Notes: generated from the sequence alone by a model not told the origin. A stretch of 64,000 bases of DNA from Rikenellaceae bacterium (GCA_031547885.1 JAVBRO010000002.1:29886-93885); one strand, 5' to 3'; counted from the first letter of the stretch, positions 47,207-64,000 are shown. A program made the numbers and translations.

Positions 47207-50200
47207 ATGCAATCTATGAAATCCAATATAAGTATTCTGTTAAAAGCGGCTTTGTCCCTCTGTTTCACTTTCGCCTGCATTCAGGCTTGGGGACAGGCCA
47301 AAAGTGTTACCGGTACTGTTTATGAGTCCGACGGCAAAACTCCCATGGCAGGGGTAATGGTCCGTGTCGTCGATACAAATACGATCGAGGTTACAAGTGC
47401 AGAGGGTAAATTCAGCATCCGTGTACCGAATAACGAAGCCAGCCTCTCCTTCACCATGATGGGCTATGAAACCAAAACCATTCAGGTGGGTGTACAAAGC
47501 CTTGTCAATATGACGATGGAAGAGTCCACTACTCAGATCAGCGAAATCGTGGTTACCGCCCTCGGTATCACCCGCGAGGAAAAATCGCTGGGTTATGCCG
47601 TTACAAAAGTGGGCGAAGACGTGATTACCAGCACTGTTTCGAGCAACTGGCTCAACTCGCTTTCAGGAAAGGTGGCAGGTCTTAATTTCGACGGAGCATC
47701 GTCGGGCCCCAGCGGGTCGATGCGCGTAACGCTCCGCGGCGAGGGGTCGCTTAAGCACGATGCCAACGAAGCCCTTTTCGTGATAGACGGGATACCTATC
47801 GGCAACCCGAAAGTCACGTCCGGATCCTCTTCTTACGGCGATCTCGAGGCTCCTGTTGACTACGGTAACAACATCGGCGACCTTAACCCCGACGATATCG
47901 AATCCATTTCGGTGCTGAAAGGGCCTGCTGCAACGGCTCTGTACGGTTCGCGCGCAGGTAACGGCGCTATCGTGATAACCACCAAAAGCGGCCGCAAGAC
48001 AAAGGGTATCGGCATTACGGTGAACAGTTCAATAGTGTTCGAACAGGCCGGATTCTGGCCCGACCTGCAGTATGAATACGGTGCGGGTAACGGCTCGATG
48101 TCCGTAGAGGACGGTTTGCAGCAGTTCTACTACTCTTTCAAAAACATACCCAACCCGAGGGATACTTCAGACGGCGGCACCACTATCGGACGTAAACAGT
48201 CGCGTTATGCGTGGGGTCCGAAATACGAAGGACAGATGTTCTACCAGTACAACGGCTACGACTGGAATACAGGCCTCTGGAAAGCTACTCCCTGGCAGGC
48301 GAAGGACTGGTACACGGGATTCTTCAAAACCGGCGTCACATACGCCAACTCCATCTCCATAGACGGCAGTTCCGGCAAGGGCAATTCGTTCCGTCTTTCC
48401 GTCAAGGACCAGCGCAATACATGGATCATTCCCAACACCGGCTACAATTCGCAAACTGTAAGCTTCTCTTTCTCGAACGAAGCGAGCAAATACGTACGTG
48501 TAACTGCAAAAGCCACCTATCTGCGCAAGAACAGCGACAACCTCCCCCCTACAGGTTATTCACAGGCTTCGCCTCTTTACGCCATCATCTATAATGTTGC
48601 GAGCGAAGATATAAGCAAATACAAAGCCGAATATTTCGACGGCCGCATACAGTGGGCTCACAAGGGGATGGCCGACAATCCGAACAACATTGCCGCCTAC
48701 GGGGAACTTCTGATAAACAATGCGAGCGGGGCACGCTCCGAGAATGCCTACTGGCTGGCTTACGACAACACGAACAGCCTCGACCGCGACAGGGTTTACG
48801 GCAACGTACAGGCGGAGGCCGACATTACGAAGTGGCTCACCCTGCAGTTTCGTTCGGGGATCGATTTCAGCGACGACTTCCGCACCCAGCGCAAACCGCA
48901 ATACTCTTACGGCTATGCCTATGGCTGGTACAGGGAGCAGACCAACACCTTCTATGAGATGAACAACGACTTCCTGCTCACCTATAACGACAGGTTCGAC
49001 AAGATCGGCCTGACGGTCAACGCATCTTTCGGCGGCAATAACATGGTTGCCAACAACAGGTTTATAAGGGATACGGCCGAAGAACTCAAAGTCCCCAATA
49101 TCTATATGATCAGCAACGCCCGTACAAAGGCAACACCCATAAACGAGCGTTCGAACAAATCCGTCAACAGTCTCTACGGTGTTCTCTCGCTGGGATGGAA
49201 AGATATGGTCTATCTCGACGTTACGGGCCGTAACGACTGGTCGAGTACCCTCGCTCCCGAAAACTGGTCATTCTTCTATCCGTCGGTCAGCGCCAGCGTT
49301 TTGCTGGAAGAGGTGTTCAAGCTGAGGCAAAAAACCCCGTGGATCGACATGCTGAAACTCAGGGCGTCGTGGGCCAACGTAGGTAACGACACCGATCCTT
49401 ACGGCATCTATGCAAGTTACAGTAACAGTGTATTCTCCGGCGGGCAGAGGCTTGCCGACCAGATGCCGTACTATAACATATTGCCGGAAAATGTCGAAAG
49501 CCTCGAATTCGGTATGGAAGCGAAGTTCCTCAAGAACCGCATTTCGTTCGACCTTGCATGGTACCACTCAAAAACCACCAATCAGTCCATTCCGTTCCAG
49601 ACGGGATGGCTTACCGGGGCGGAATATCAGCTTGTCAATGCCGGCCGCGTCGACAACAGGGGCGTCGAAATATCCGGTCGTTTCCAGCCGATACGTACAA
49701 AAGATATCACATGGACTATAAGCGCCGCATGGGCCAAGAACTGGAATAAACTTGTCGCTCTGACCAGCCAGAGCGACATATGGCAGCTGAACTCCTCGAA
49801 CACGGTGAGCAACAGTATCTTCATCTACGCTTTCACCGGGCAGGAACTCGGCCGCATATATGGTTTCGGTTATGAAAGGGCACCGCAGGGCGCTTATTAT
49901 CTGGATGCACAAGGCAAAACGGTAGATTGTTCGGGGCAGACGATCCTGGATGCAAGCAGCGGCCAGCCTTACGTAGACACGAGCGATCTGAGAGACCTCG
50001 GCAGCATCTTCCCCGACTGGCAGGGAAGCATCAGTACGTCCTTCTCATGGAAAGACCTGTCGGTCAACGCTACCTTCACCGGTCAGATGGGCGGAAAGGC
50101 ATACTCCGTCACCAACCAGTCGCTTTCCATGCAGGGTAAAGTAAAATCGACCCTCGAAGGACGCTACGACGGCCTTATGCTCCAGGGTGTAAACCGCAAT

Positions 50201-50554
50201 TCAGACGGAACTTACTCCAACAACACAACCATCATATCCGATATCGTCGGTTATTACACCGACGCGGTATGGCTCAACAGGAATACAGAAAACAATATTC
50301 ACAGCACTTCGTTCCTCAAGTTCAAAGAGCTGCGCGTAGACTACTCGCTCCCGGCCCGCTGGATCACCCAAACGAAAATCTTTCAGGGTATTTCGGTCGG
50401 TTTCTTCGTCACCAACGTCTTCTGCTGGACCAAATTCCCGCAGTATGACCCGGAAGTGGCATCGCTCGACAACGGCTCTATAAGCCGCGGTATCGAGAGC
50501 GGTGCATACCCGATGACACGTACATACGGCATGAATTTTAAACTTACGTTCTAA
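47207..50554 (+). CDS. SusC/RagA-family TonB-linked outer membrane transporter
   Basis: Signal peptide, CarbopepD_reg-like N-domain (VTGTVYESDGKTPMAGVMVRV), TonB box region (EIVVTALGI) and plug (NPDDIESISVLKGPAATALYGSRAGNGAIVITTK). A 1115-aa barrel ending KLTF. Confidence 0.9.
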   Translation: MQSMKSNISILLKAALSLCFTFACIQAWGQAKSVTGTVYESDGKTPMAGVMVRVVDTNTIEVTSAEGKFSIRVPNNEASLSFTMMGYETKTIQVGVQSLVNMTMEESTTQISEIVVTALGITREEKSLGYAVTKVGEDVITSTVSSNWLNSLSGKVAGLNFDGASSGPSGSMRVTLRGEGSLKHDANEALFVIDGIPIGNPKVTSGSSSYGDLEAPVDYGNNIGDLNPDDIESISVLKGPAATALYGSRAGNGAIVITTKSGRKTKGIGITVNSSIVFEQAGFWPDLQYEYGAGNGSMSVEDGLQQFYYSFKNIPNPRDTSDGGTTIGRKQSRYAWGPKYEGQMFYQYNGYDWNTGLWKATPWQAKDWYTGFFKTGVTYANSISIDGSSGKGNSFRLSVKDQRNTWIIPNTGYNSQTVSFSFSNEASKYVRVTAKATYLRKNSDNLPPTGYSQASPLYAIIYNVASEDISKYKAEYFDGRIQWAHKGMADNPNNIAAYGELLINNASGARSENAYWLAYDNTNSLDRDRVYGNVQAEADITKWLTLQFRSGIDFSDDFRTQRKPQYSYGYAYGWYREQTNTFYEMNNDFLLTYNDRFDKIGLTVNASFGGNNMVANNRFIRDTAEELKVPNIYMISNARTKATPINERSNKSVNSLYGVLSLGWKDMVYLDVTGRNDWSSTLAPENWSFFYPSVSASVLLEEVFKLRQKTPWIDMLKLRASWANVGNDTDPYGIYASYSNSVFSGGQRLADQMPYYNILPENVESLEFGMEAKFLKNRISFDLAWYHSKTTNQSIPFQTGWLTGAEYQLVNAGRVDNRGVEISGRFQPIRTKDITWTISAAWAKNWNKLVALTSQSDIWQLNSSNTVSNSIFIYAFTGQELGRIYGFGYERAPQGAYYLDAQGKTVDCSGQTILDASSGQPYVDTSDLRDLGSIFPDWQGSISTSFSWKDLSVNATFTGQMGGKAYSVTNQSLSMQGKVKSTLEGRYDGLMLQGVNRNSDGTYSNNTTIISDIVGYYTDAVWLNRNTENNIHSTSFLKFKELRVDYSLPARWITQTKIFQGISVGFFVTNVFCWTKFPQYDPEVASLDNGSISRGIESGAYPMTRTYGMNFKLTF

Positions 50555-50575
50555 CCGCTAAAGATTGACAGAGAT

Positions 50576-52105
50576 ATGAAATCAATGAAACATATTATTA
50601 TTTTGGTGTCTGGAGCGGCGCTTATGCTTGGAGCCTGTACGCACAAGTTCGAAGAGTACAACACAGACCCGAACCATCTGCCCATATGGAGTATCGCTCC
50701 TTCGGCACTGTTGGAACAGACCCTGTATTCAGGAGCACAGGGCTACATGACACGCTTCCGCGACCTGACCGGCGAATTGATACAGTTCTCGGCTTCGGGG
50801 TTGGGAACCACGGCGGTACACCGCTATGCGATAACCGGTAACGCCGCAACCGGCACATGGGACCATTCTGCGGAATGGGCTGCCAATGCCGACCATATGT
50901 ACAAACTTGCAGTCAGGCAGAACGACGTCAATTTCCAGGCGATAGGACTTACCCTGAGGGCGTTGTTCATGTCCAACCTGACCGACGTTTTCGGCGATAT
51001 TCCGTTCAGCGAGGCGTTCACCATCTATAGTAATGAGGCTATCATCCTGATGAAGTTCGACGAGCAGAAGGATATATACACTCAGCTTTTCAAGGACCTT
51101 GAGGAGGCCAACCGCCTCTACAGTCCTTCCAAGGCAATGAGCGACCCCGCGGTGGACCTGCTCTACAAAGGCGACATTACAAAATGGAAGAAATTCACCA
51201 ACTCGCTTTATCTGCGCCTGCTGATGAGGCTCAGCAACCGCGACACTGAAATGAAAGTGAGCGAGAAAATAGCTGAGATCTTCGCCACTCCGGGTAAATA
51301 TCCCGTGTTTTCGAGCCGGGAAGACGGTGCGATACTCGAATACACCGGAATAACCCCATTCATAAATACCTACGGGAATACCGAAGTCACTTCATGGAAC
51401 GGCAAAACAGCTGCCCTGTACGGAATCAAGCTGCTCCAGGATTGGGGCGACCCGCGCATCAACCTCTATTACACTATGCGCGGAAACGATTGGAACGGTA
51501 TCGCCAGCGGGATGCCTGTTGCCGAAATAGATAATTCCGGCCTTGCCGTCTACCGGAAAAAGACGCTCGGAGAGTTCACATCCCCTTACGCATTCATGCG
51601 CTATGAAGAGGTCCTGTTCATTAAAGCCGAGGCCGCATTCTTCGGATGGGTGCCGGGCGGCCCGACTCTTGTAAAAGAACTCTACGACGAAGGAGCCGCC
51701 CAGTCCATCAGATTCTGGGACTGGCAGGCCGGCAACTTTATGGAGAACCGCGAGTTGTCCATAGATATGTACTTAAGGCGTGGAGATTACGCAAATACGA
51801 CTCAGGGAACCCCATATGACGGAACCTATGAAATGTTGATGACGCAGAAGTACATCTCGATGTTCTGGTGCGGTTTCGAGGCATGGCACGATTGGCGCCG
51901 CACCGAACTGCCCGTCCTTACGATAGGTACCGATACGGGGAACGGCGGGATACTTCCCAGAAGGTTCGAATACCCCATCGAGATCCGCAAATCGAACATG
52001 GACAATTACAATGCGGTCGTAGCCAGGTATATGTCGAAATACGGTTCGGGCGACAATATGCAGACCCCGGTCTGGTGGTCGCTCAACGCAGTGCAGAACA
52101 ATTAA
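50576..52105 (+). CDS. SusD/RagB-family nutrient-binding outer membrane lipoprotein
   Basis: Lipoprotein signal (AALMLGACT). TPR-like helical SusD fold features. Immediately downstream of SusC (21-nt gap). Confidence 0.8.
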   Translation: MKSMKHIIILVSGAALMLGACTHKFEEYNTDPNHLPIWSIAPSALLEQTLYSGAQGYMTRFRDLTGELIQFSASGLGTTAVHRYAITGNAATGTWDHSAEWAANADHMYKLAVRQNDVNFQAIGLTLRALFMSNLTDVFGDIPFSEAFTIYSNEAIILMKFDEQKDIYTQLFKDLEEANRLYSPSKAMSDPAVDLLYKGDITKWKKFTNSLYLRLLMRLSNRDTEMKVSEKIAEIFATPGKYPVFSSREDGAILEYTGITPFINTYGNTEVTSWNGKTAALYGIKLLQDWGDPRINLYYTMRGNDWNGIASGMPVAEIDNSGLAVYRKKTLGEFTSPYAFMRYEEVLFIKAEAAFFGWVPGGPTLVKELYDEGAAQSIRFWDWQAGNFMENRELSIDMYLRRGDYANTTQGTPYDGTYEMLMTQKYISMFWCGFEAWHDWRRTELPVLTIGTDTGNGGILPRRFEYPIEIRKSNMDNYNAVVARYMSKYGSGDNMQTPVWWSLNAVQNN

Positions 52106-52130
52106 CAGGATTACTAAAAAACTATCAATA

Positions 52131-54386
52131 ATGAAAGCTAATAAATATCTTTCAATCAAAGCAGTCCGGATATTGCCGATCGCGGTTCTCCTTGCGTTAG
52201 CCGTCGGTTTTACGGCGTGCCAGAAGGACGACCCTACAGTCGACACATACATAGACCTGGGTATTCCTGACGACAAACTGAAGATCGAAGCTCCGGTCGA
52301 AGGAATAGCAGATAAAGAATCAACCTCTGACCAGTCTTATTTAAAGAACAGGCTGTGGTACAATGTCCACACCGACTACCAGGCATGGCAGATAGAGGTG
52401 GAATACCTGTACGATGCCGACCTGGACTGGGTTACGGTGTGGCCAAAAAACGGTGAGGTCGACGGACGTTTCAGTGTCTCCGTTGCAAGGAACAAAACCA
52501 CTCCTTACCTGCGCGAAGCGCTCGTACATATCAAATCCGGCGGACAGACCCTCAAGACCATCAAAGTCAGTCAGGCTGCAGTGGCCCCTGTACTGGAACT
52601 CGGCATGGAGGGGCTGACCCGCATGACCTTTGCCAGCAAAGCCTCTGAGAAGACGGCCAAACTCAACACAAACGTCCTGTGGGTAGCAGAAATCACCACC
52701 CCGAACACAGACTGGCTGAGCCTTTCGGATTTCGAAGCGCAATCCGTGCTTCTGACCGTGAAAGCAAATCCAGGCAGCTCTCCGAGATCGGCCGTCGTGC
52801 GTTTCACGATGATAGGCGGCAGCGACGATCTGTTCGTAGATCTCAGTGTCGTTCAGAGGGACAAATCTACAGACCCCGAATATGCGACCCTCACCACGAT
52901 CGCGGATGTTCTCAACAAGGTCGGCCCCAATGGCGGCGAAATCGAAGAGAACGTTTACGTGGAAGCATGCGTGACCAGCGACCTCAGCCGCCGGAATTTC
53001 GACTCCAGGCGCCAGTGGCCGGGCACGGAATCCACTTCACAAACTTTCTACGCCGACTACATGTATGAAAAGAGATATATGTGGATACAGGACGAAAGCG
53101 AAAGAGGTTTGATGCTCGAATGGCTCTCTGCCGATTTCAACAATTATCCTCTCAACACCAAACTCAAAGTACACCTTGTCGGCGCTACGGTGGTAAAGGA
53201 CGCCTTTACCGGTGCGTTGAAGATAGGCAGCGTCGAACCCGACATGATATTCGGTTCCGAAGAATCGGACGGCATAGCGCCCGTGGAACTCGACTCGTTC
53301 GACAATATCGCCGACTATGTGAACACTCTGATCAAGGTCAACCCGGTTCAGTTTGCCCTACCCTACGGAACATACGTAAACATCGACGAGCGTTATTTCA
53401 ACCAGCAATACATGACCGACGTTACGACAAGTTCGGTACCATATTGCGAAACGTCGCGGCAGTACGGCCACTTCATAATGGACAAGCACGGGAACAGATA
53501 CCGTCTCGTTACCGAGTGTACGTTTACGGAACGATACATCCGCGCTATACCCAGCGGTTCCGGACCTCTGACCGCCATAGTCACTAAAAACTGGCTTGCC
53601 AACGAAAACCAGATCGTTCTGCGCCTGCGTATGGACAGCGACAATGAAGTTTCGGACGATGCTTCGACGCGCCTCACCAATGTCATCAGCCGCTTCGGCC
53701 CGTACACCTACAACTCTTCCGGTCTGCCTTCGATTCAGGCGGCTATTGGTAACGGCACCTTCAGAACAGGGGTTTTCACCAAGGTGACCCCGAGCGGCGA
53801 CGGCACCGGAATGTACTGGTCGCAGACTTATGCCCGCATGCCGAAATCATTGTCGGACATCACCATAGATGACGCCGGTGTACAGAGCACCGATGTTCCT
53901 CAGCCGTCCGATGCCAACGAGTTCATGTACCCCTGTATCAACGCCAACCAGATGTGGAATCCCAACCTGGCCTCTGTGATCCCCGATGCGAAAATAGGCG
54001 GCTGGATAATCACTCTGGATACCAGGGGCGTTACGGGCGACCTCTACCTTACGTTCGACTCGTCCTCTTCGCAGTCGGGTCCGGCCTGGATGAGGCTGCA
54101 GTGGAAGGAAATAGTGGTTCCCTCGGACTCATTTACAACCAAAGACACCTGGAACACTATAATAACCAGGTATGAAATTCCCAACTGGGATGTGAACTTC
54201 CATTGCCAGCAGTACTCCTACAAGCTGCCTGCTGAGATAAAAGGTAAAAAGGAAGTCATTATCAGGCATATTACCGACTTCGAAAGCGACGGTTCGGAAG
54301 CAAAGCGCGCAGCCCGCAACGGAGCTGTGGCCGGCAACGGCGGAACGAACCGTATGGGTGTCTGGTCGCTCGAAGAGTTAAAATAA
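52131..54386 (+). CDS. Surface lipoprotein with two N-terminal BACON-like domains and a large C-terminal domain of unknown function
   Basis: Lipoprotein signal (LAVGFTAC). BACON-like cores (DLDWVTVWPKNGEVDGRFSVSVARN...REALVHIKSGGQTLKTIKVSQ and TDWLSLSDFEAQSVLLTVKANPGSSPRSAVVRFTM). Confidence 0.55.
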   Translation: MKANKYLSIKAVRILPIAVLLALAVGFTACQKDDPTVDTYIDLGIPDDKLKIEAPVEGIADKESTSDQSYLKNRLWYNVHTDYQAWQIEVEYLYDADLDWVTVWPKNGEVDGRFSVSVARNKTTPYLREALVHIKSGGQTLKTIKVSQAAVAPVLELGMEGLTRMTFASKASEKTAKLNTNVLWVAEITTPNTDWLSLSDFEAQSVLLTVKANPGSSPRSAVVRFTMIGGSDDLFVDLSVVQRDKSTDPEYATLTTIADVLNKVGPNGGEIEENVYVEACVTSDLSRRNFDSRRQWPGTESTSQTFYADYMYEKRYMWIQDESERGLMLEWLSADFNNYPLNTKLKVHLVGATVVKDAFTGALKIGSVEPDMIFGSEESDGIAPVELDSFDNIADYVNTLIKVNPVQFALPYGTYVNIDERYFNQQYMTDVTTSSVPYCETSRQYGHFIMDKHGNRYRLVTECTFTERYIRAIPSGSGPLTAIVTKNWLANENQIVLRLRMDSDNEVSDDASTRLTNVISRFGPYTYNSSGLPSIQAAIGNGTFRTGVFTKVTPSGDGTGMYWSQTYARMPKSLSDITIDDAGVQSTDVPQPSDANEFMYPCINANQMWNPNLASVIPDAKIGGWIITLDTRGVTGDLYLTFDSSSSQSGPAWMRLQWKEIVVPSDSFTTKDTWNTIITRYEIPNWDVNFHCQQYSYKLPAEIKGKKEVIIRHITDFESDGSEAKRAARNGAVAGNGGTNRMGVWSLEELK

Positions 54387-54399
54387 AACCGGAATTATC

Positions 54400-57072
54400 A
54401 TGAAAACTTTTGAATTGATAAAAAAATCATTGCTGTTGATCGCAGTCGCCTCTGCCGTACTGCTCAACTCGTGCCAAAAGGATCCGAAAACCGAGGCGCA
54501 GCCTACCCTTTCGGTGCCTACGGCGGATCTCCTCGTGTCCAAACTGGGGCTCGACTACAAGGGAAGCATACCCTCTTTCGACATCGAGTCCAACACTTAC
54601 TGGACCATCAAGATGGAAGCGGTCCCTTCCTGGGAAGAGGGCGGACCGGAGTGGATATTACTCTCCAAACGCGGAGGAAACGGTAATTCGACCATATCGC
54701 TGTCTGTCGTTCCTAATTACACCGAAGACACCCGTACGGCAACCATAACCATCACTACGCAGTTCGGGCTGACGAAGACCATACATCTGCTTCAGATGGA
54801 TACCGATGAAACGGTCGCTTTCTATACCGACGATTTCGGTTCGTCGGCGAACAATGCGCCGGTCGACAGTTTTACCGGTTGGAATTATTCGGGCATAGGG
54901 GTCGATTCTTCGAAGGGCGGGCTTCCGTTCTCTTATGAAGGAACCGCTGTAGTTGACAAATCCGATCCTTCGACGGGTTACGACGGGGCGTCGGGCGGCA
55001 ACAACATCCTGCTGTCAGGCGCAGATGCCGGCATCGTCATGAAGCACATCAGGCCCCTCGGCATGGTGAAGATGGACGTCTCGTTCGGTTCGGCCTCTTC
55101 GGGAGCTTCTTTCGACTCCTCGGAACTGATCCTCGAGATCAGCAGCGACGGCGAGAACTGGTATGATATACCCTATGTCCGCGGCACCGGCGCCGAATGG
55201 GAATACTCGACATTCAGCCTGACCCTGGCCGAAGCCTATGCCTACATTTTCCTTCGTTTCCGCACGACCGACGGCGAATACAGGATCGATGATGTTGCGG
55301 TCACATACGGCGAAGGCGGCGATGTGTACGAGCTTGTCGTGATCCTTCCTCCCGAACCGGAACCTTACAAAGGCACGACATTCCCCGTGTTCTGGAAGAT
55401 GACGGCAGCCGAATACAACAACAAAGAGGGTATATGGTTCTCTACGTTCAGCTATGCGAACGAAAGCCTGTATATCCTGTCAAACCAGTACGGCAATGAG
55501 GAAAGCCTGATGGGCCCGGCCTCTATCAGCTATGTACTCGGCGAGAACAGGCCGACCGACGGAGAACCTTTCAAGGCGGAAATCGGCACTACGGGCCAGC
55601 CTTTTGTTTCGGGCGCATGGACCGACGACTACTGGCTCTTCACCACCCCGGTCGAGAACATCAACCCGGGAACGATTGTCAACATCTCGTTCCTCACCCG
55701 CAGCAGCGCTTCCGGTATGAAATACTTCGCGCTGGAGTATTATGCCGGCGGCCAGTGGCACGCGGCTTCGGAATTGCAGAATGCCACGGAAGATCCAAAC
55801 ATCAGGTATACCCATATCATGCCTGCCGATGCCTCGAATACGTTGGTGAACTGCAAATTCGTCATGCCCGACGCTATCGTCGAGGACGACATGCTGATCC
55901 GTTTCAGGTGCGCCGGAAATATCAGGTGCAGCAACGGGGCGGTCCTGCCCACGGTTAACGGCGGCACCCACCGCATCGCTGCGGACACGGGAGGTACGGG
56001 AACATGGGCTACGATAGACATTACGGATCCCAACGACAAGCCTGATGTGGTTACGTTCAAACTGACCAGCGTCACAGTCGACGGAAAGGGGTTAAGGTCT
56101 GTAAAGGTACCCGCGGCTCCGGCACCATATGTCTTTACTGTAACGGCCGACTGGGATTGGACCCTGTCGACCACAGACCTCGGTTGGGCTACGGTAACTC
56201 CGGACAACGGCAATAGGGGGGCAACTGTTTCAGTTACTATTCTGCCTGAAAACTATACCGGACTCAGCAGCCGTCAGGGTTGGATAACTCTGACCTCGGG
56301 CGACACGACGCTCGACATACTGGTTATCCAGGACAGGCCGGGAAGCAGCGAAGGCGCCCTTAAAGACGACGGGAAAGCGGTCGGATATGTCTATTTCGAA
56401 GACAATTTCGACTGGGTCGTACCTTTCGGCGGACCGGACGATGTGGGCAATATCAATACTTTTGCCGCAGGTGTAGCGCCTGACTATCCGTCGTCGGGCT
56501 ATCCTGTCGTTACCGGCACATTGAATATGTATTCAGCCGCACCTGCCGGTTATAGTGCAGGCGATCTTGCTCTTGCATTTGCCGATCATGGATACGAGGA
56601 CCTCTTCCCATACGCGCTGTCGTCATGGCGATGCATCTATTTCGGGGCACATTACCTGAAATTTGGCAAAACCGACCGTCAGACGGGTATTGTGAGAACC
56701 ATTCCAGGCATAGCCGAAGACAAGGGCACCAATATCAGCTTTACGTTCGAGGCCCTTCCGTGTATTACCGGAAGCGGCAACTACGACCAGGTCTCCCTGG
56801 TGGTGGAAATAATCGACGGTCCTGGTTCGGTGGGCATCAATGACGGAGTAACGACGATCAGCGAACCGATGAGCGTAACGCAGACCAACAAGACTTTCCC
56901 GTGGGCATGGCAGCCTAAGGAAGTGGTTCTCTACGGCGTAACTTCGGAAACCAAGGTAACGCTCAGAGTCCCCTACGGAGCGGCTCCTGCAGTAGCAGGG
57001 AACACAACGGGAACATTCCGTTACTATCTGGATAATTTGAAATTTACCAAGCACAGTTTGGTGACGCAATAA
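54400..57072 (+). CDS. Surface lipoprotein (890 aa) with N-terminal BACON-like domain; candidate substrate-binding protein of the PUL
   Basis: Lipoprotein signal (LLNSC). YWTIKMEAVPSWEEGGPEWILLSKRGGNGNSTISLSVVPNYTEDTRTATITITTQFGLTKTIHLLQ is BACON-like. A second similar module is near residue 580 (WATVTPDNGNRGATVSVTILPENYTGLSSRQGWITLTSGDTTLDILVIQ). Confidence 0.5.
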   Translation: MKTFELIKKSLLLIAVASAVLLNSCQKDPKTEAQPTLSVPTADLLVSKLGLDYKGSIPSFDIESNTYWTIKMEAVPSWEEGGPEWILLSKRGGNGNSTISLSVVPNYTEDTRTATITITTQFGLTKTIHLLQMDTDETVAFYTDDFGSSANNAPVDSFTGWNYSGIGVDSSKGGLPFSYEGTAVVDKSDPSTGYDGASGGNNILLSGADAGIVMKHIRPLGMVKMDVSFGSASSGASFDSSELILEISSDGENWYDIPYVRGTGAEWEYSTFSLTLAEAYAYIFLRFRTTDGEYRIDDVAVTYGEGGDVYELVVILPPEPEPYKGTTFPVFWKMTAAEYNNKEGIWFSTFSYANESLYILSNQYGNEESLMGPASISYVLGENRPTDGEPFKAEIGTTGQPFVSGAWTDDYWLFTTPVENINPGTIVNISFLTRSSASGMKYFALEYYAGGQWHAASELQNATEDPNIRYTHIMPADASNTLVNCKFVMPDAIVEDDMLIRFRCAGNIRCSNGAVLPTVNGGTHRIAADTGGTGTWATIDITDPNDKPDVVTFKLTSVTVDGKGLRSVKVPAAPAPYVFTVTADWDWTLSTTDLGWATVTPDNGNRGATVSVTILPENYTGLSSRQGWITLTSGDTTLDILVIQDRPGSSEGALKDDGKAVGYVYFEDNFDWVVPFGGPDDVGNINTFAAGVAPDYPSSGYPVVTGTLNMYSAAPAGYSAGDLALAFADHGYEDLFPYALSSWRCIYFGAHYLKFGKTDRQTGIVRTIPGIAEDKGTNISFTFEALPCITGSGNYDQVSLVVEIIDGPGSVGINDGVTTISEPMSVTQTNKTFPWAWQPKEVVLYGVTSETKVTLRVPYGAAPAVAGNTTGTFRYYLDNLKFTKHSLVTQ

Positions 57073-57116
57073 TCATCCCTGCATGACAGATTAAGAAACA
57101 CGTCTGTTCGGTAACT

Positions 57117-57169
57117 GCTGAGCGGTTTCACGCCTGAAATACTTAGGGCGGAAACCGCTCAGCTATTTT
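57117..57169 (+). terminator. Intrinsic terminator of the PUL
   Basis: 13-bp perfect stem GCTGAGCGGTTTC...GAAACCGCTCAGC with a 21-nt loop, followed by TATTTT. Confidence 0.65.
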
Positions 57170-57550
57170 GCACCATCGGACATCACCTACCTTACCGGAA
57201 CCATTCGATTAATCAGGAAGCTATCCTGTAAGAATGAAAGTTTAAAGAGTTGGATTGTATCAGGCGTTGGGGATTCGGAAATGGTTTCTTGAAACCACCG
57301 GTGTAAAAAGGCCTCTTTTACCGTTTGCCATTGATAGTGGAGTTTCCTGTTTTGCAGAGCTGCTTTAAGGAGATGTTCGCCAATTGATTTACTAATTTTC
57401 TATTATATTACTAGTAATCAAGTATATGCCATAAGCACAGAGGCAATGTCCATATAATCAATTAATTAGAATCAAAAACCACAAGTGTTAAGATTTTTGT
57501 TTTGCAACACGCATATTATCAGCGTATTGCAAATCGAGTGATAAGATGAA

Positions 57551-57575
57551 AAAGCCGGTGAAAGCCGGCTTTTTC
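57551..57575 (+). terminator. Terminator-like hairpin about 80 nt upstream of the pilin gene (inside a 36-codon uORF)
   Basis: AAAGCCGG-TGAAAG-CCGGCTTT, followed by TTCTCG. Confidence 0.4.
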
Positions 57576-57652
57576 TCGTTTACCGGAGTTAATTTTATTG
57601 TGTGGAAAATAGAACACTCTCCGGCCCGGAGAGAACATTTAACAATCACACT

Positions 57653-58063
57653 ATGAAAACACTGCTCCGGAAAAAGCTCCCGGCCTTTTCGCTGTCGGAA
57701 CTCCTCGTCGTCCTTGTAATAATAGGCATCCTCGTGCTGATCGCCCTGCCGAACCTGATGCCGCTCATCTCGAGAGCCAAGAGCACCGAGGCACAGCAGC
57801 AGCTCACCTTCCTGCACACTCTCCAGAAAAGCCATTTCTACACCCACTCGCGCTACTCGGAATCTCTCGAAGAGCTCGGTTTCGAGCAGCAGAGGCTCGT
57901 CACCGACGGAGGGTCGGCCAATTACCTTATAGAAATAGTCGAATCATCCGAGCGCGGTTTTGTGGCAACGGCGACGGCTGTGGTCGATTTCGACGGCAAC
58001 GGGGTATTCAACGTCTGGGAGATAAACCAGGACAAGGAGCTTCATGAAACCGTAAAAGACTGA
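57653..58063 (+). CDS. Type IV pilin / pseudopilin-like protein (prepilin-type N-terminal cleavage/methylation domain; Ala at -1)
   Basis: MKTLLRKKLPA-FSLSELLVVLVIIGILVLIALP: a class-III signal with conserved Glu at +5 and a hydrophobic alpha-1 helix. 137 aa. Confidence 0.6.
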   Translation: MKTLLRKKLPAFSLSELLVVLVIIGILVLIALPNLMPLISRAKSTEAQQQLTFLHTLQKSHFYTHSRYSESLEELGFEQQRLVTDGGSANYLIEIVESSERGFVATATAVVDFDGNGVFNVWEINQDKELHETVKD

Positions 58064-58083
58064 CACCGACTCATATATAACCG

Positions 58084-58557
58084 ATGGAATATCTGCCCTT
58101 ACTTATGCTCGCACCGTTATCACATCTCATTGTAAGCGACTTCCGCAGCCGGGAGGTGTCGGTCATGTGGCTGGGTATACTTGCCATAGGAACTGTGTGC
58201 ATACCGGTCATTCAGGACGGATGGCTGGATGTGCTGAAGCGTAGCGGACAGAACCTGCTGCTGATATTGTATATGTCGACCGGCATCGTCGTGTGGGGAT
58301 GGATAAAGGCACGGAAATTCGTCAACCCGATCAATGTATACATAGGGCTGGGCGACGCGCTGTTCTTCCTGATACTTATTCCGCTGTTCCCCGTGAAGCA
58401 TTATGCCTGGCTGCTGGTGGCGTGTATGATATTTTCGCTTGTGTGGTGGGGTGCCGCCGTCCTGTTAAAAAAGAAATCCCCGAAAAACATCCCTTTTATA
58501 GCGACCTCGGGGATCGTGCTGGCCGGGGCTATCATCTTTAAAGTCTTTTTCACATGA
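58084..58557 (+). CDS. Minimal prepilin peptidase (A24 family, peptidase domain only)
   Basis: 157 aa with multiple TM helices, a first catalytic Asp in the SDFRSR context and a second in the IGLGDALFF (GxGD) motif. 4-nt overlap with the downstream ATPase gene. Confidence 0.6.
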   Translation: MEYLPLLMLAPLSHLIVSDFRSREVSVMWLGILAIGTVCIPVIQDGWLDVLKRSGQNLLLILYMSTGIVVWGWIKARKFVNPINVYIGLGDALFFLILIPLFPVKHYAWLLVACMIFSLVWWGAAVLLKKKSPKNIPFIATSGIVLAGAIIFKVFFT

Positions 58558-59978
58558 CGATCCCCGACCACATACCCACCGAACTGATCCAGCGCTTCAC
58601 TTCTCAGCAGGCGTGGGAATATATGCTCGTGCCGTTCGAGGCGCAGGGCGGCGGGATAAAGTGCTTCGGGGAGGAGTCGCGCGATTATCTCGATCCGCTG
58701 CTCGAGATAGAGGTGATATACGGACTGACAGTCAGCGTCGAAAAGATATCGGCGGCGGAACTTCAGAAGCTGCTTCGGAAATATTACCGTTCTGAGGGGG
58801 AAACGAGGCCTGGGCGGACGCGTTCGATCTCGGAGATTAGCAGCGGGCAGGGATTCCTGATGGGGCTGATCGAGGAGGCTTTCGACACTTACTCGAGCGA
58901 CATCCATATCGAGGCTTACGAAGAGCGCTGCCGCGTGAGGTTCCGCATCGACGGCAAGCTGATCGAGAGGTATGTCATCGAAAAGGGTAATTACGCCTCG
59001 CTCGTCAACCAGATAAAGATCATCGCCAACCTCGATATCTCCGAGAAACGCCTGCCGCAGGACGGGCGCATTCTGTACAACCGCAACGGCAAAAAGTTCG
59101 ACGTGCGCGTGTCGTGCCTGCCGACCATCTACGGCGAAAAGATAGTGATGCGCCTTCTGACCCGCCATATCGAACTTCTGGAGCTGGCAAATCTCGGTTT
59201 CAGCGAGCGGCAGTTGGCTGATTACTGCAAGGCGATAGAGCGTCCGCACGGGATGATCCTGATCTGCGGCCCTACCGGTTCGGGGAAAAGCACGACGCTC
59301 TACGCGACCCTGCGCAGGCTGAACAAACAGACCGGGAATATCCTCACGATAGAAGACCCCGTGGAGTACACCCTCGAGGGGGTGAATCAGGTGCAGCTGA
59401 AAGAGGAGATCGGGCTGACATTTACCAGCGCCCTCCGCACTTTCCTGCGCCAGGACCCCGATATCATAATATTGGGCGAGATCCGCGACGCCGACACCGC
59501 TCAGATGGCTATACGTTCCTCGCTCACCGGTCATCTTATCTTTTCCACGATCCACACCAACACCGCGTGGGGAAGTATAGCCCGTCTGAGCGACATGGGT
59601 ATCCATCCTTATCTCGTTGCGAATACGCTTGTGATGTGCGTGGCGCAAAGGCTTGTGAGGCTGCTTTGTCCGCATTGCAAGTCGAAAGAGAAGGCAAACG
59701 GCGAACTCCGCACGGTATTGCCGGGAATAGACATCCGCCATCATTACAAGGCGGTGGGGTGCGACAAATGCTACTACACCGGTTATAGCGGGCGGCGCGC
59801 CATATACGAGGTTATTCCCGTCGACGACGAACTGGCCGCGGCGGCTCGTCACGAAGAGACGGACATCGACGATAAACTGCGGGAAAGGAACATCATTTCA
59901 CTCCGCGATGCCGGCATCGACCTCTTCCGGCGCGGCGACACCTCTCTGGAAGAAGTCATCCAACTACTAAAAAGCTAA
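58554..59978 (+). CDS. GspE/PilB-family secretion/pilus-assembly ATPase
   Basis: Walker A GPTGSGKSTT; Asp box; Walker B DPDIIILGEIRD; His box. Tetracysteine motif CPHC...CDKC. Confidence 0.9.
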   Translation: MTIPDHIPTELIQRFTSQQAWEYMLVPFEAQGGGIKCFGEESRDYLDPLLEIEVIYGLTVSVEKISAAELQKLLRKYYRSEGETRPGRTRSISEISSGQGFLMGLIEEAFDTYSSDIHIEAYEERCRVRFRIDGKLIERYVIEKGNYASLVNQIKIIANLDISEKRLPQDGRILYNRNGKKFDVRVSCLPTIYGEKIVMRLLTRHIELLELANLGFSERQLADYCKAIERPHGMILICGPTGSGKSTTLYATLRRLNKQTGNILTIEDPVEYTLEGVNQVQLKEEIGLTFTSALRTFLRQDPDIIILGEIRDADTAQMAIRSSLTGHLIFSTIHTNTAWGSIARLSDMGIHPYLVANTLVMCVAQRLVRLLCPHCKSKEKANGELRTVLPGIDIRHHYKAVGCDKCYYTGYSGRRAIYEVIPVDDELAAAARHEETDIDDKLRERNIISLRDAGIDLFRRGDTSLEEVIQLLKS

Positions 59979-59983
59979 ACCCG

Positions 59984-61903
59984 ATGAAGAACCCCATACT
60001 GCTAACCCTAACCCTTATTTTTCTTTCCGTACAACTTCTGTGCGGGCAGCGGATCGTCAATCCCAATGCAGAACAGGAGCGCCTTACGGAGGTGGGGCTG
60101 AAACTGACCAACCTGTCGGTCCTCGATCCGACTTATATCACAGAAGTCGATATCTCCGTGGGAAAAGTGCCTCTGTCGGAACTTCTGCGCAACGTCGCCA
60201 AAGCGGCAGAAGTCAACCTGAGCGTCAAAGGGGCCGAAAACATCCAGGTCACCTGCAACTTCAGTCGTGCGAAGATCACCGACCTCGTCTTTTTCCTCTG
60301 CAAAGAGTATAACCTCGATATAGACGTCGTGGGGAATATCGTGGCGATTTATCCGGTAGCCCCTCCCCCGCCGGAAGCCAAAATACTGGGCGTGACATAC
60401 AAAATAGCAGGCAACAGTCTCAGTTTCGACCTTTCGGGCGACCGGCTTGCCGACGTCGCCAAAAAGATAACCGACCTGACCGGAACCAATTTCTTCCTGC
60501 CTCAGACGCTTTCCGAGCAGAAACTGTCAGGGTATATCAAGGATATGCCTTTCGGCGAGGCGATCCGGAATATCGCGGCGATGAACGGCCTTGAAGCCGA
60601 ACGCGACGACAACCACGTGTGGACGTTCTATCCGGCCGAGCCGCCCGCACAGCAGCAGAACGGCCAGCCGGGTGCGGCTTCGGCTCCGCTCTACCAGCGC
60701 CGGACGCCTTTCTCCCCCACCGAGCTTTCGGTCGACAGCCTCGGGATGATAACGGCGCAGATAGGGCGCGGAAACGTGCAGGATATGATCGTCGACCTTT
60801 GTGAACAGCAGGATCTCAATTATTATTTTCTCTCGCCCGTGACGGGCCAGACAAGCATATATGTGCGAGAAGTGGATTTCGAGACGCTTTTAGACGTCCT
60901 TCTGCGGGGAAGCGATTTCTCTTATTACTTCGAAGACGGGATCTACATATTCGGGGCTGAAGCCACCGGGCAGAGTTCGCTCGTTGCGGTGGAGAAAGTG
61001 GCCATGCACAACCGTTCCGTGAACAAGGTCTCGGAAATCATCCCCGACGTGCTTAAAACCGGCATTCAGGTGCGGGAGTTCCACGACCTGAACAGCATCA
61101 TAGTTTCGGGGGAACGCAGGCAGGTGGCCCGCGTCAAATCGTTCCTGCGTTCTATCGACAAGCGGGTTCCGCTGGTCACCATCGAGATCATCATCGTTGA
61201 CGCCACCAAACAGCGGATCATGGAGATCGGCGTAGAGGCCGGGTTCGGCAAGAGCGGCGTGAAGTCGGGCGGAACACTTACCGGCGTCGACGTCATGCTC
61301 AACGCCAACTCGGTTAACAAACTGATAAACACTTTCAACGGCTTCGGGTCGGTCAACATGGGGAAGGTGAGCGAGGGATTCTATCTGGGTCTGCAGTTCC
61401 TCGAGGACAACGGCATCATCGAAATGCGCTCTACGCCCAAACTCTCGACCCTGAACGGCCATGAGGCCACACTGAAAAGCGGCGAAACGCAATACTACAA
61501 GGAGATCTCGAACAACTACTACGGCTCGCAGGTTCCTGTTTCGTACGAATCATACACCTGGAAAAGCATCGACGCCAACATGGAGATAAAGATAACCCCA
61601 TACGTGAGCGAGGACGAGCATATTACCCTCGACATCGAGATAGACCAGACCGAATTCACCGCCCGCGTGGAAGCCAATGCGCCGCCTGGAACCGCCACGC
61701 GCAGCTTCAAATCGCAGATCAGGGTGCAGAACGAGGAGATGGTCCTGCTCGGCGGCATAGACCAGAACACCAAGGAAAAGTCGAACAGGGGGCTGCCGTG
61801 GATATCGCGCGTGCCGGTCCTGAGATGGTTCTTCGGCAAAAGCAAGGACGACAAGACCGAGCACAAACTCAATGTTTTCATAAAGCCTACCCTCGTAGAA
61901 TAA
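59984..61903 (+). CDS. Secretin (GspD/PilQ family outer membrane channel)
   Basis: Signal peptide. N-domains; C-terminal secretin core (VPLVTIEIIIVDATKQ...EMVLLGGIDQNTKEKSNRGLPWISRVPVLRWFFG). Confidence 0.8.
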   Translation: MKNPILLTLTLIFLSVQLLCGQRIVNPNAEQERLTEVGLKLTNLSVLDPTYITEVDISVGKVPLSELLRNVAKAAEVNLSVKGAENIQVTCNFSRAKITDLVFFLCKEYNLDIDVVGNIVAIYPVAPPPPEAKILGVTYKIAGNSLSFDLSGDRLADVAKKITDLTGTNFFLPQTLSEQKLSGYIKDMPFGEAIRNIAAMNGLEAERDDNHVWTFYPAEPPAQQQNGQPGAASAPLYQRRTPFSPTELSVDSLGMITAQIGRGNVQDMIVDLCEQQDLNYYFLSPVTGQTSIYVREVDFETLLDVLLRGSDFSYYFEDGIYIFGAEATGQSSLVAVEKVAMHNRSVNKVSEIIPDVLKTGIQVREFHDLNSIIVSGERRQVARVKSFLRSIDKRVPLVTIEIIIVDATKQRIMEIGVEAGFGKSGVKSGGTLTGVDVMLNANSVNKLINTFNGFGSVNMGKVSEGFYLGLQFLEDNGIIEMRSTPKLSTLNGHEATLKSGETQYYKEISNNYYGSQVPVSYESYTWKSIDANMEIKITPYVSEDEHITLDIEIDQTEFTARVEANAPPGTATRSFKSQIRVQNEEMVLLGGIDQNTKEKSNRGLPWISRVPVLRWFFGKSKDDKTEHKLNVFIKPTLVE

Positions 61904-61915
61904 ACCCCCGACAGT

Positions 61916-62902
61916 ATGAAAGTCCTTTCCCGGATACTCAGGCACTTCAACGTGCTTCACATAAGGTTCGACAGCGAAAGAGAACCGGCTGTGGAACTGG
62001 TCCCGTGCCATGTATCGAAGGGAAAGATCGAAACCGGTGAAACAAGGACGCTCCCCTGTATCGAGGCGGAAGCCAAAAGACTGAACAAGGCACCACTGGT
62101 CATAGCCGTTTCCGGCAAGGGGATTATAACCAAGGATGCGTCGCCGGGCGGGATAGCCGACACAGTTACATCCAATCCCGAAACCTTTGTCTGGACAAAA
62201 TCTGCGGACGGAAGCATCTCTTTCGTCAGGCGCAGCCAGCTCTCGAAAATTACGGAAGAACTCGACGATGCGAGCGTTACGCCGCTATACACGGAGTGCC
62301 TGCCCGACAGCAGCGCGGAACAATTGGCCGCGGCTGTAGAAAGGTTTTACGCAGAGCGTCTGAACTGGAAGAGTGTACTGAAACCCACCGCCGAAGGGTC
62401 GCAACTGGCATCCCTGCTTGCAAAACACATCCAACTGCCTGTTTTGGGAGTCGTGCTGCTGGCGCTTATGGTGAATTTTCTGCTTTCGTCCGGTGTACGC
62501 GAAGATTTTCAGGCGGCGAACACCGAACTCGCCGCGCTCCGCAAGTCGGCATCGACGGCCACCGCAAGCAGCGACCGCAAACAGGCTGCCTTTGAACAAT
62601 TTTCCCGCACACTGCCTTACCGGTTCAGTTGGCTGTCGGACAGGATAGCGGCGGCAACTCCCGAAAAAATCACCCTGAACGAACTCTCCATCGCTCCCGT
62701 TACAAAAAACGTCGAGGCCGGGAAACCCATACAACAGAACGAACGCGCAGTCATGATCCGCGGAGAAACACCGTCGGCGGAATCCGTTGCGTCGTTCGTT
62801 GAATCGCTGGGCAGACTCAATGCCGGCACGGTCAGACTGTCATCCGTCGAGCAGGACCGCGAACGATCTCTTCTCATATTCAGGATCGAGATGGAATTAT
62901 GA
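61916..62902 (+). CDS. Hypothetical single-TM protein, possibly PilM/PilN-like assembly component
   Basis: Cytoplasmic N-terminal half, a TM helix (LPVLGVVLLALMVNFLLSS), then a coiled-coil-like periplasmic half. Position between secretin and next membrane gene suggests a PilN-like role. Weak. Confidence 0.35.
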   Translation: MKVLSRILRHFNVLHIRFDSEREPAVELVPCHVSKGKIETGETRTLPCIEAEAKRLNKAPLVIAVSGKGIITKDASPGGIADTVTSNPETFVWTKSADGSISFVRRSQLSKITEELDDASVTPLYTECLPDSSAEQLAAAVERFYAERLNWKSVLKPTAEGSQLASLLAKHIQLPVLGVVLLALMVNFLLSSGVREDFQAANTELAALRKSASTATASSDRKQAAFEQFSRTLPYRFSWLSDRIAAATPEKITLNELSIAPVTKNVEAGKPIQQNERAVMIRGETPSAESVASFVESLGRLNAGTVRLSSVEQDRERSLLIFRIEMEL

Positions 62903-63405
62903 AAGGGGTGGCGAAATATAAAGGTATTGCCTGGCTGGTGCTGGTGGTAGTGGTCGTTCCGCTGGTCGTCTACTGGTATGCTGTCAGCGGCACCGTGAAG
63001 CAGTGGCGCATGACCGGAAAGTACCGCCAACAAATAGAACAACTACGTAGCACTCAGTCCCGGACATCGGAGCCGCAAAGCGTGAACACAACCGATACCG
63101 AAATAATCCTGAGCGGGCTTGCGGTCGCCGAACTATTGCCATTCATCGAGTCCGAAAAGCTGCGGATCGAATACTTCTCGCCCTGCGTAACCTCAGACAA
63201 GGACGGGATAGTGCTGACCACCGGGCAGTTGTCCGTACAGGGGGCATTCATTTCCATAGTGAATCTGCTCGATAGGCTTGAACGCGATATGCCTTACTGC
63301 AAGATCATCGCCGCCCACTACCGGAGCACGAAACCGCGCAACCGCGGAAGCACTAAAACGCTCTCCTGCACCATATACATCCAACAGATAACGGAAGTTC
63401 GATGA
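62899..63405 (+). CDS. Hypothetical single-TM protein, possibly PilO-like
   Basis: N-terminal TM (IAWLVLVVVVVPLVVYWYAV), then a coiled-coil-like and small periplasmic domain. 4-nt overlap with the upstream gene. Confidence 0.3.
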   Translation: MKGVAKYKGIAWLVLVVVVVPLVVYWYAVSGTVKQWRMTGKYRQQIEQLRSTQSRTSEPQSVNTTDTEIILSGLAVAELLPFIESEKLRIEYFSPCVTSDKDGIVLTTGQLSVQGAFISIVNLLDRLERDMPYCKIIAAHYRSTKPRNRGSTKTLSCTIYIQQITEVR

Positions 63406-63593
63406 ATTCAAAAAGTATGAAGCGTATTTACAAAGGTCGTGGAGCTAACTCATCGAACTTCCGTTACGGGCATCTTCGATGCCCGGCGTTTAGACTCCAC
63501 CCCCTAAATCCCCCTAAAATCCAGGGGGACTTTGCAAAACCAAATAGGTTTTGCGGATGAGAGAGACCAAACCTTCGATTGATTAAATAATGG

Positions 63594-63899
63594 ATGATTA
63601 TGAAAAAACTACTGATTCTGCCCGTACTGTGCCTGATGTATGCCTGCAGCGATATTTTAGAGACGAAAATTTCCGGGAAAGAGGTGTCTGTGGTTGCGCC
63701 GCTGGACGGATCGGAAGTTGCGGAAGGTCCCGTTTCGTTCCTTTGGAACACTCTCGACGGAGCCGAACGGTACCGCGTGACCATCGTCTCCCCCTCGTTC
63801 GAAAGTGCGAGCATTGCCGTCCGGGACACTGTCATGTATCCCGATTCGCTCTCACTGAGCCGTAAGCGTTCGGTAAAGTGCGTATTGTTAGGTGATTGA
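63594..63899 (+). CDS. Small lipoprotein (hypothetical)
   Basis: MIMKKLLILPVLCLMYACS lipobox; 101 aa. Confidence 0.35.
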   Translation: MIMKKLLILPVLCLMYACSDILETKISGKEVSVVAPLDGSEVAEGPVSFLWNTLDGAERYRVTIVSPSFESASIAVRDTVMYPDSLSLSRKRSVKCVLLGD

Positions 63900-64000
63900 A
63901 AAGGATTTAGCTTTGCGGGGATAATCGGTTATATTGTTGTTTTACATAAATTGAATGACCGTTTAGTAACCGTAAAGTCTTAAAATATGGGGAGAAAATT

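Follow-up and report, generated by a model that had tools for sequence, protein, structure and literature searches.

What kind of envelope machine is encoded by the closely spaced genes near one end of a 64,000-nt stretch of DNA from a Rikenellaceae bacterium (GCA_031547885.1 JAVBRO010000002.1:29886-93885; the whole of this stretch is referred to below as the window)? An initial annotation had read them as a compact cluster resembling a type IV pilus or a type II secretion system (T2SS), with an unusual pilin, no visible platform gene, and membership of a poorly characterized system. From gene identities, family membership, synteny, the pattern of conservation, and active-site residues, all computed here, we conclude that the region probably represents the first seven genes, the seventh of them truncated, of a T2SS-like type IV filament operon of the Bacteroidota type, typified by CHU_3191-3201 of Cytophaga hutchinsonii. 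The presence of a type IV filament/T2SS-like cluster in this Bacteroidales (Rikenellaceae-like) genome is supported by the identities of its components, which are listed here by position in the window.

57484-57652, + strand: conserved 5' untranslated or promoter-proximal region; DNA similarity to the closest related locus, L005, begins at 57484
57653-58063, + strand: major (pseudo)pilin, 136 aa; N_methyl and TIGR02532 matches above their cut-offs
58084-58557, + strand: predicted short A24 (GxGD) prepilin peptidase, 157 aa, peptidase core only
58554-59978, + strand: predicted assembly ATPase of the GspE/PilB clade, 474 aa, with a zinc-type tetracysteine motif; T2SSE match
59984-61903, + strand: outer-membrane secretin, 639 aa; Secretin, STN, and Secretin_N matches
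61916-62902, + strand: predicted GspL-like bitopic platform protein (equivalent of a PilM-PilN fusion), 328 aa, transmembrane (TM) segment at about 170-195
62899-63405, + strand: candidate GspM/PilO-like bitopic protein, 168 aa, N-terminal TM segment; assigned from position and topology
63406-63593, no strand: hairpin-rich intergenic insert, with a 17-nt inverted repeat (63389-63405/63450-63466) and further hairpins
63594-63899, + strand: small lipoprotein gene, apparently truncated; phmmer match to the lipoprotein of L005

Six tightly packed open reading frames (ORFs) thus occupy the + strand from 57653 to 63405, with junction distances of 20, -4, 5, 12, and -4 nt, and a seventh, small ORF (63594-63899) follows a spacer of 188 nt. 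The genes originally listed all exist on this strand, and the four spacings given for them (-4, 5, 12, and -4 nt) were correct.

A cluster of this type was described and mutated in C. hutchinsonii by Wang et al. 2017 (PMC5553014) as the “Bacteroidetes T2SS.” Within CHU_3191-CHU_3201, CHU_3195 was assigned as component D, CHU_3196 as E, CHU_3197 as an O component consisting of Peptidase_A24 only, CHU_3198 as G, CHU_3199 as F, and CHU_3200/3201 as minor pseudopilins, with CHU_3191, 3193, and 3194 being PilM/N/O/P-like by HHpred (PMC5553014). Homologues were tabulated for Flavobacterium johnsoniae (Fjoh_0611-0622), Pedobacter heparinus, F. psychrophilum, and Odoribacter splanchnicus, the gene order being minor pilins-F-G-O-E-D-C-L-M in the first of these and G-O-E-D-C/L/M in the last (Odosp_1529 to 1522) (PMC5553014). 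The order in the window, G-O-E-D-L/M, equals that of Odoribacter, and a Flavobacteriaceae locus (L009) reproduces that of F. johnsoniae. The CHU_3191-3201-type set, in which G-O-E-D and L/M/C-like genes share a locus with minor pilins and F, was recovered when the window was considered together with related loci (L005, L014, L002, and those of other classes). The reverse primer for CHU_3198 encodes a C terminus ...QETVKD, against ...HETVKD in the window pilin, so that ETVKD is shared; for CHU_3198 the comparison covers only the termini, as read from primers.

The system is therefore less obscure than was first supposed, having been mutated in C. hutchinsonii, tabulated for Odoribacter (PMC5553014), and discussed by Denise et al. 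2019 (PMC6668835) as a peculiar derivative of type IVa pili. The cluster is a further member of a known but little-studied Bacteroidota family, on which our literature search found nothing specific by way of later work or of a link to competence in Bacteroidota. Its resemblance to the C. hutchinsonii type extends to the whole inventory of major pilin, short Peptidase_A24-only peptidase, GspE-like ATPase, secretin, divergent PilM/N/O- or GspL/M/C-like proteins, minor pilins, and GspF platform, and orthologous loci from Flavobacteriales and other classes were recovered with the window proteins. It differs in its setting, a gut-type Rikenellaceae host rather than a soil or aquatic glider. What it adds is a gut Rikenellaceae example of a phylum-wide, little-studied machine for which the only genetics come from one soil bacterium.

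The probable remainder of the operon can be reconstructed from its relatives. L005, from a Rikenellaceae metagenome-assembled genome (MAG), shares 82% DNA identity with the window from 57484 to 63391, and its GspM-like gene is followed by genes for a 140-aa lipoprotein, a 155-aa TM protein, a protein of ~400 aa, two minor pilins, a T2SSF platform protein (151 bits), and a 192-aa protein. The same downstream half is found in L014, which has the closest GspL-like gene, and in the Alistipes UBA934/termite-gut loci L002, L003, and L006, the Alistipes loci being without the lipoprotein. The order pilin-peptidase-ATPase-secretin-GspL-like-GspM-like-lipoprotein-TM protein-large protein-two minor pilins-T2SSF occurs in Rikenellaceae and Alistipes and, with local permutations, in Flavobacteriales, Saprospiraceae, and other Bacteroidota. 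A survey by phmmer of 13 proteins against the ten longest fetched loci showed that the set is kept across Bacteroidota classes, permuted only locally. All relatives examined have T2SSF another 3-5 kb downstream (L002/L003, L005, L014, L008, L009, L012, and L013). By this comparison, the operon would consist of 12-13 genes, of which the window holds the first half. The ~400-aa protein (L005 16067-17431; L008 17838-19094) has a prepilin-like hydrophobic N terminus without Glu5 and is GspK-like; its only Pfam match is a weak one of the bactofilin type (β-helix).

The observation that no platform gene precedes the window end holds, in that no T2SSF or other platform homologue was found in the 64-kb window, although relatives do carry T2SSF downstream. 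Because their operons continue to that gene, the apparent compactness of the cluster is explained as an effect of the window edge, and so, probably, is the absence of the platform gene, for which a break in the sequence at 63861, considered below, is another possible explanation. In the relatives examined, the cluster is intact rather than a degraded remnant. Each of the ten surveyed loci has a single T2SSE ATPase; no PilT was found within ±10 kb in 10 loci, and no second T2SSE-family ORF in the window, with the qualification that genes of type IVa pili (T4aP) can be scattered.

The major pilin has the class III signal peptide of a type IV filament pilin, MKTLLRKKLPA/FSLSE (the slash marking the predicted cleavage site), comprising an 11-residue leader with Ala at -1, followed by Ser at +4 and Glu at +5 of the mature protein. 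The translated ORF bears out the signal KKLPA/FSLSE originally reported, and the protein exceeds the cut-offs of both Pfam N_methyl (26.4 bits; cut-off 21.2) and TIGR02532 (19.8 bits; cut-off 16.3). The mature chain of 125 aa is without cysteine. Among solved structures in the PDB, Myxococcus xanthus PilA (8tj2, E 2.8e-12) comes closest to this pilin, and GspG scores E 0.007. The pilin gene is also the most conserved of the cluster: identities to the orthologues in L005, L002, and L010 are 93, 89, and 61% for the pilin, 93, 85, and 55% for the ATPase, and 92, 69, and 34% for the secretin. The values of 61% for the pilin and 55% for the ATPase show orthology to Flavobacteriales loci.

The Ala at -1, on account of which the pilin had been called unusual, is the majority residue in orthologous pilins and the usual one in other classes of Bacteroidota. 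The 120 closest pilin clusters (79-95% identity) include 112 sequences that match the motif, and the residue preceding F-S-L-x-E is Ala in 95 and Gly in 17 of them; several more of the 120 read A/YSLSE. In operons from other classes, major and minor pilins alike read K-A/F-T-L-x-E, occasionally with Ser. Judged from these alignments, Ala(-1) is a family trait and not a local oddity. The minor pilins of Rikenellaceae and Alistipes (L005 17383-18286; L002 14483-15365) have Gly at this position (LPG/STIIE, IPG/WTLSE) against the Ala of the major pilin, a point of difference from the C. hutchinsonii type, and those of L008, L009, L012, and L013 in other classes have Ala or Ser, in keeping with the Ala of the major pilins there. 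Since Ala and Gly co-occur at -1 among the pilins of the same operons, the peptidase family evidently accepts either residue. In archaea, too, Ala is accepted at -1 of class III signals, and A24 enzymes of the peptidase-only kind are similar in this respect.

Near its C terminus, the pilin contains an EF-hand-like loop of 12 residues, DFDGNGVFNVWE (aa 112-123; 57986-58021), whose consensus D-F-[DN]-x-[DN]-G-x-[FYH]-N-[VI]-W-E is kept by almost every one of the 120 close orthologues and, without exception, by the seven loci of other classes. The loop fits the PROSITE pattern PS00018 at all positions but one, and from this likeness we infer that it may bind calcium. GspG uses calcium instead of a disulfide. 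Together with Ala(-1) and a peptidase-only A24 enzyme, the conserved loop serves as a signature of the family that could improve the PilFind and MacSyFinder models for Bacteroidota.

The enzyme predicted to process this pilin escaped direct detection. The 157-aa protein contains GLGD at residues 88-91, D19-x3-R23, and about six hydrophobic helices, and found no match in Pfam or NCBIfam scans; its profile retrieved nothing meaningful from PDB sequences. Its homologues are more informative. D19, R23, and G88-x-G90-D91 are invariant in 19 close homologues, and an exhaustive profile search gathered 1,418 cluster representatives; in an alignment of 104 of these, 72 match PF01478 and D19, G88, D91, and P137 are invariant. 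In MAGs of Flavobacteriales, Saprospiraceae, and other Bacteroidota, orthologues occupy the corresponding place in the operon, and compared with the family profile these give an hhalign probability of 99.7% (E 4.6e-26). Each of the seven peptidase orthologues from other Bacteroidota matches PF01478 at E<0.01, and two of the seven exceed the gathering score. By structure, FlaK is the closest match.

On the grounds of the invariant Asp and GxGD residues, the operon position, and the PF01478 matches of its orthologues, we assign the 157-aa protein as a putative divergent A24 peptidase consisting of the membrane core only, that is, a polytopic membrane protein of the PF01478 family with two aspartates, the second in GxGD. 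Because it has only 157 residues (family members have 145-180) and begins directly with TM1, there is no room for the methyltransferase domain of PilD/GspO, and no match to PF06750 (methyltransferase/DiS_P_DiS, ~100 aa) was found, which sets it apart from the bifunctional enzymes. The original description of a GxGD peptidase devoid of a methyltransferase domain is thus supported by way of homologue profiles, even though Pfam missed the window protein itself. Drift below Pfam detection distinguishes it from its C. hutchinsonii counterpart and has a practical consequence: the Pfam Peptidase_A24 and NCBIfam hidden Markov models (HMMs) miss the Rikenellaceae peptidase, whereas profile or structure comparison recovers it. 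As a polytopic GxGD aspartic protease of ~150 aa without a methyltransferase domain, it resembles TadV/CpaA of Tad pili and archaeal FlaK/PibD; the setting differs from theirs in being coupled to an ATPase of the GspE/PilB type, not TadA/FlaI, and to a T4a/GspG-like pilin, not Flp.

The ATPase is placed by its scores in the family of GspE/PilB assembly ATPases. It matches T2SSE (PF00437) with 415.6 bits and has a Walker A motif at 239-246, a Walker B motif, a His box, and the tetracysteine motif CPHC...CDKC at 372-406 that had been noted at the outset. GspE (TIGR02533; 488.7 bits, cut-off 630.25) and PilB (TIGR02538; 455.5 bits, cut-off 675.65) are the HMMs nearest to it, followed at a distance by PilT (163 bits), FlaI (55 bits), and TadA (53.4 bits, cut-off 373); against the PDB, EpsE/GspE scores 362 bits, PilF/PilB 330-341, BfpD 116, and PilT 111. 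Sequence comparison therefore locates it in the GspE/PilB clade, almost equidistant between GspE and PilB and far from PilT, BfpD, TadA, and VirB11, and not among unrelated secretion ATPases. Assignments to Tad, T4b, or conjugative ATPases were rejected on score, and a Tad/Flp identity is contradicted both by the TadA score and by a pilin that is T4a/GspG-like and 125 aa when mature.

The secretin call, too, was correct: the 639-aa protein is an outer-membrane channel of the secretin family, with matches to Secretin (PF00263, 122 bits), STN (38 bits, in two stretches), and Secretin_N (28.6 bits), all above their cut-offs. At subfamily level, the PilQ (140.3 bits; cut-off 284.35) and GspD (126.5 bits; cut-off 351.35) models both fall below cut-off; among PDB entries, GspD 5wln scores 66 bits and PilQ 3jc8 57 bits.

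The two proteins encoded next were described as having a single TM segment, and one hydrophobic segment was found in each (328 and 168 aa). The AlphaFold model of the 328-aa protein (predicted local distance difference test score 78.6) matches GspL in both halves, with the architecture of a cytoplasmic actin-like domain, a TM segment, and a periplasmic ferredoxin-like domain. According to this model, it is a GspL-type protein, equivalent to a fusion of PilM and PilN. The GspL-like proteins of Rikenellaceae (319-328 aa) are without ~80 residues of the cytoplasmic domain that are found in the ~410-aa orthologues of other classes (L008-L011), a further difference from the C. hutchinsonii type. 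For the 168-aa protein, NCBIfam GspM_XpsM gave E 2e-4 and 21 bits (cut-off 60) over the TM region only; no sequence match was found in the PDB, and the hhalign comparison with the GspL-like family was not significant. Its gene is kept after the GspL-like gene in L002, L005, L007, L008, and L010, and it may be called GspM/PilO-like by position, topology, and the weak TM-restricted match.

How might these parts work together? We favor operation in the manner of a T2SS, by means of a periplasmic pseudopilus. The short GxGD peptidase, through Asp19 and Asp91, would remove the 11-residue prepilin leader after Ala(-1), and since it has no methyltransferase domain, Phe1 would most likely not be N-methylated. 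The GspE/PilB-type ATPase would dock on the cytoplasmic domain of the GspL-like protein and, via the GspF/PilC platform encoded downstream, polymerize the pilin into a short periplasmic filament, primed by the GspK-like protein and the two minor pilins that are also encoded downstream. Working under the secretin, such a filament may deliver folded periplasmic cargo to the surface or otherwise affect the presentation of outer-membrane proteins. The preference for a pseudopilus is based on several features. The conservation of the pilin equals or exceeds that of the ATPase, which is typical of GspG-type proteins and atypical of exposed pilins, and the pilin is small and cysteine-free with a conserved EF-hand-like loop. 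Furthermore, the ATPase has a fused protein of the GspL type as its partner, no second ATPase was found nearby, and all genes lie in one operon with a GspK-like protein.

The proteobacterial T2SS (Gsp/Eps/Pul/Xcp) offers a close comparison. Shared with it are the single-operon arrangement, one tetracysteine assembly ATPase, a fused GspL-type partner with both domains as judged from predicted structure, a secretin, a small, highly conserved, disulfide-free major pseudopilin and, in relatives, a large GspK-like minor pilin. The differences are that the peptidase is without the GspO/PilD methyltransferase domain, that Ala replaces Gly at -1, that no recognizable GspC, GspS, or GspN is present, and that the published phylogeny places the system with T4aP. 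A number of other observations weigh against the pseudopilus model. All Gsp equivalog cut-offs are missed, that for GspG at 30 bits against 88.85 and those for GspE and GspD by the scores given above, so that at equivalog level the system does not match a canonical T2SS. The pilin helix is T4a-like and the best solved relative of the pilin is a T4a pilin, no secreted substrate is known for the family, and the window contains neither the platform gene nor those of the minor pilins; the operon sequence moreover breaks at 63861, such that this copy might be split or inactive. Mutants of C. hutchinsonii in D, F, and G grew poorly on cellulose, had lost or altered cellulose-bound outer-membrane proteins, and adhered less, with soluble secretome and gliding unchanged. 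The loss of cellulose use and the altered cellulose-bound outer-membrane proteins count in favor of the model; an unchanged extracellular protein profile combined with reduced adhesion to cellulose fits a pilus or adhesin role as well. In the analysis of Denise et al. 2019 (PMC6668835), the “so-called T2SS of Bacteroidetes” always groups with T4aP, outside T2SS, and the authors suggested an independently derived secretion system.

These last points lead to the strongest of the alternatives, a genuine T4aP-like surface pilus for adhesion to particles, host mucus, or cells, with either no dedicated retraction ATPase or one encoded elsewhere. We consider this unlikely, albeit worth serious attention. 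Besides the constant clustering with T4aP (PMC6668835) and the adhesion defect, its case includes the match of the pilin to M. xanthus PilA and to NCBIfam typeIV_PilA_Myxo (E 3.6e-16, far below cut-off), and the naming of orthologues as PilE by JGI. Shared with the T4aP machine are an ATPase about as close to PilB as to GspE, a secretin that scores highest against the PilQ subfamily HMM, and periplasmic domains that are PilN/PilO-like; the resemblance of the pilin to PilA is closest in its N-terminal half. An exposed major pilin would not, however, be expected to show the extreme conservation seen here, both across the 120 closest clusters and at 61% identity to another class. The mature pilin has no disulfide-bonded D-region and is not variable, the partner protein is of the fused GspL type in place of separate PilM and PilN, all genes form one operon, the peptidase is not bifunctional, no PilT or PilU is nearby, and both the PilB and PilQ cut-offs are missed, which leaves no T4aP equivalog or subfamily assignment.

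A more radical proposal is that the machine forms a class of its own, a T4aP-derived envelope nanomachine that is neither T2SS nor T4aP. Its defining features would be three: a minimal, non-methylating A24 peptidase and Ala(-1) pilins that evolved together, a cysteine-free pilin of extreme conservation whose EF-hand-like loop takes calcium, and a platform of the fused GspL type. In gut Rikenellaceae it would have a function new for the type IV filaments of the phylum, such as the export of a specific cargo or DNA uptake. We regard this as doubtful in its entirety. If it were true, the novelty would be limited to the biochemical definition and the function in the gut, the idea of an independent secretion system having come already from Denise et al. 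In any case, the operons define targets for learning what the machine exports in abundant gut Bacteroidales such as Alistipes and Odoribacter.

A different issue is whether the operon is functional in this particular genome. Midway through the lipoprotein gene, at nt 63861, the window ceases to align with L005 and L014, both as protein (after ...PDSLSLS) and as DNA; here the window reads ...PDSLSLS/RKRSVKCVLLGD followed by a stop codon and the relatives read ...PDSLSLSLGFRVKLAEGRYQW... (the slash here marking the junction). The window ORF encodes 101 aa with an unrelated tail of 12 codons, compared with 140-150 aa in relatives, and its kinship with the L005 lipoprotein is clear (phmmer E 1.9e-35). 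The 139 nt from 63862 to 64000 are AT-rich and unrelated to L005 and L014, and the tail after 63861 had no match in the metagenome, viral, and plasmid collections scanned. The break could be due to insertion of a mobile element, to a rearrangement, or to an assembly join.

It is conceivable, though in our view improbable, that the operon has been split or disabled after 63861, with the lipoprotein cut and the first six genes separated from the half that encodes the minor pilins and the platform. The similarity to the two close relatives does end at exactly this point and gives way to an unrelated, AT-rich tail, none of the genes of the downstream half was found in the 64-kb window, and an independent, 100%-identical Logan contig ends 28 nt past the junction. 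That contig is short and broken at both ends, which low coverage would explain equally well; exact-protein look-ups of six window proteins returned only this 2.3-kb Logan contig. The six upstream genes are intact, free of frameshifts, and 75-93% identical to those of L005, a mere 139 nt are visible past the junction, and the lipoprotein gene is dispensable in Alistipes UBA934, which is without it.

Because its size varies widely and Alistipes UBA934 has no such gene, the lipoprotein looks accessory to the operon. It has ~315 aa with weak Ig/PKD-like matches in loci of Flavobacteriales and others outside Bacteroidales (L007-L013), 140-150 aa in Rikenellaceae relatives, whose short form is another departure from the C. 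hutchinsonii type, and is absent from Alistipes UBA934 (L002/L006, 13031 region). The 188-nt spacer that precedes it (63406-63593) is homologous to a 226-nt spacer in L014, and L005 has a gap of only 5 nt there; the spacer may represent a short repeat that was inserted, or else an RNA with a regulatory role.

The weakest alternative, a competence pseudopilus resembling ComG or the T2SS-like Cts system of Campylobacter that would bring DNA through the secretin for ComEC-dependent import, is very unlikely: the pilin's sub-threshold matches to ComP_DUS (23.8 bits against 27.3; 25.8 for the L005 orthologue), ComGC, and ComGE, the precomputed PF16732 matches on many orthologues, the relation of the secretin to HofQ/PilQ, and the fit of a single ATPase and a short conserved pilin to Com-type machines are set against a ComP_DUS match that, besides scoring under its cut-off, spans the generic helix and first strands of a pilin, a Riemerella transposon screen that yielded ComEC, DprA, ComF, and novel outer-membrane proteins and no pilin, ATPase, or secretin genes, the natural competence of P. 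gingivalis, in which a T2SS is reported as not identified, and the lack of com genes adjoining the cluster in any locus.

The region upstream of the pilin gene requires one correction. The cluster had been taken to start at 57546, whereas the pilin ORF begins at ATG 57653, as in the L005 orthologue. The ATG at 57546 opens an ORF of 36 codons (57546-57656) in another frame, whose TGA overlaps the pilin start (ATGA) and which is not conserved in L005 or L002. Within it lies a terminator-like hairpin (57549-57574; AAAAAGCCGG-TGAA-CCGGCTTTTT), likewise not conserved in L005 or L002, and the idea of a leader or attenuator upstream of the pilin was dropped, as the terminator-like hairpins are not kept in relatives. 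A scan of 57000-64000 with Rfam gave sub-threshold chance matches only. What the window, L005, and L002 do have in common in the 5' region are the blocks GTGTTAAGATTT..GTTTTGCAA and GAGTTAATTTTAT, which may belong to an untranslated or promoter-proximal region.

Further upstream, a functional link to the SusC, SusD, BACON, and metallophosphoesterase genes was rejected, as these do not adjoin the pilus operon in any relative. They form a block resembling a polysaccharide utilization locus (45185-57072), which encodes a calcineurin-like metallophosphoesterase, SusC (Plug/CarboxypepD_reg), SusD, and two BACON-domain lipoproteins, one of them with DUF5689.

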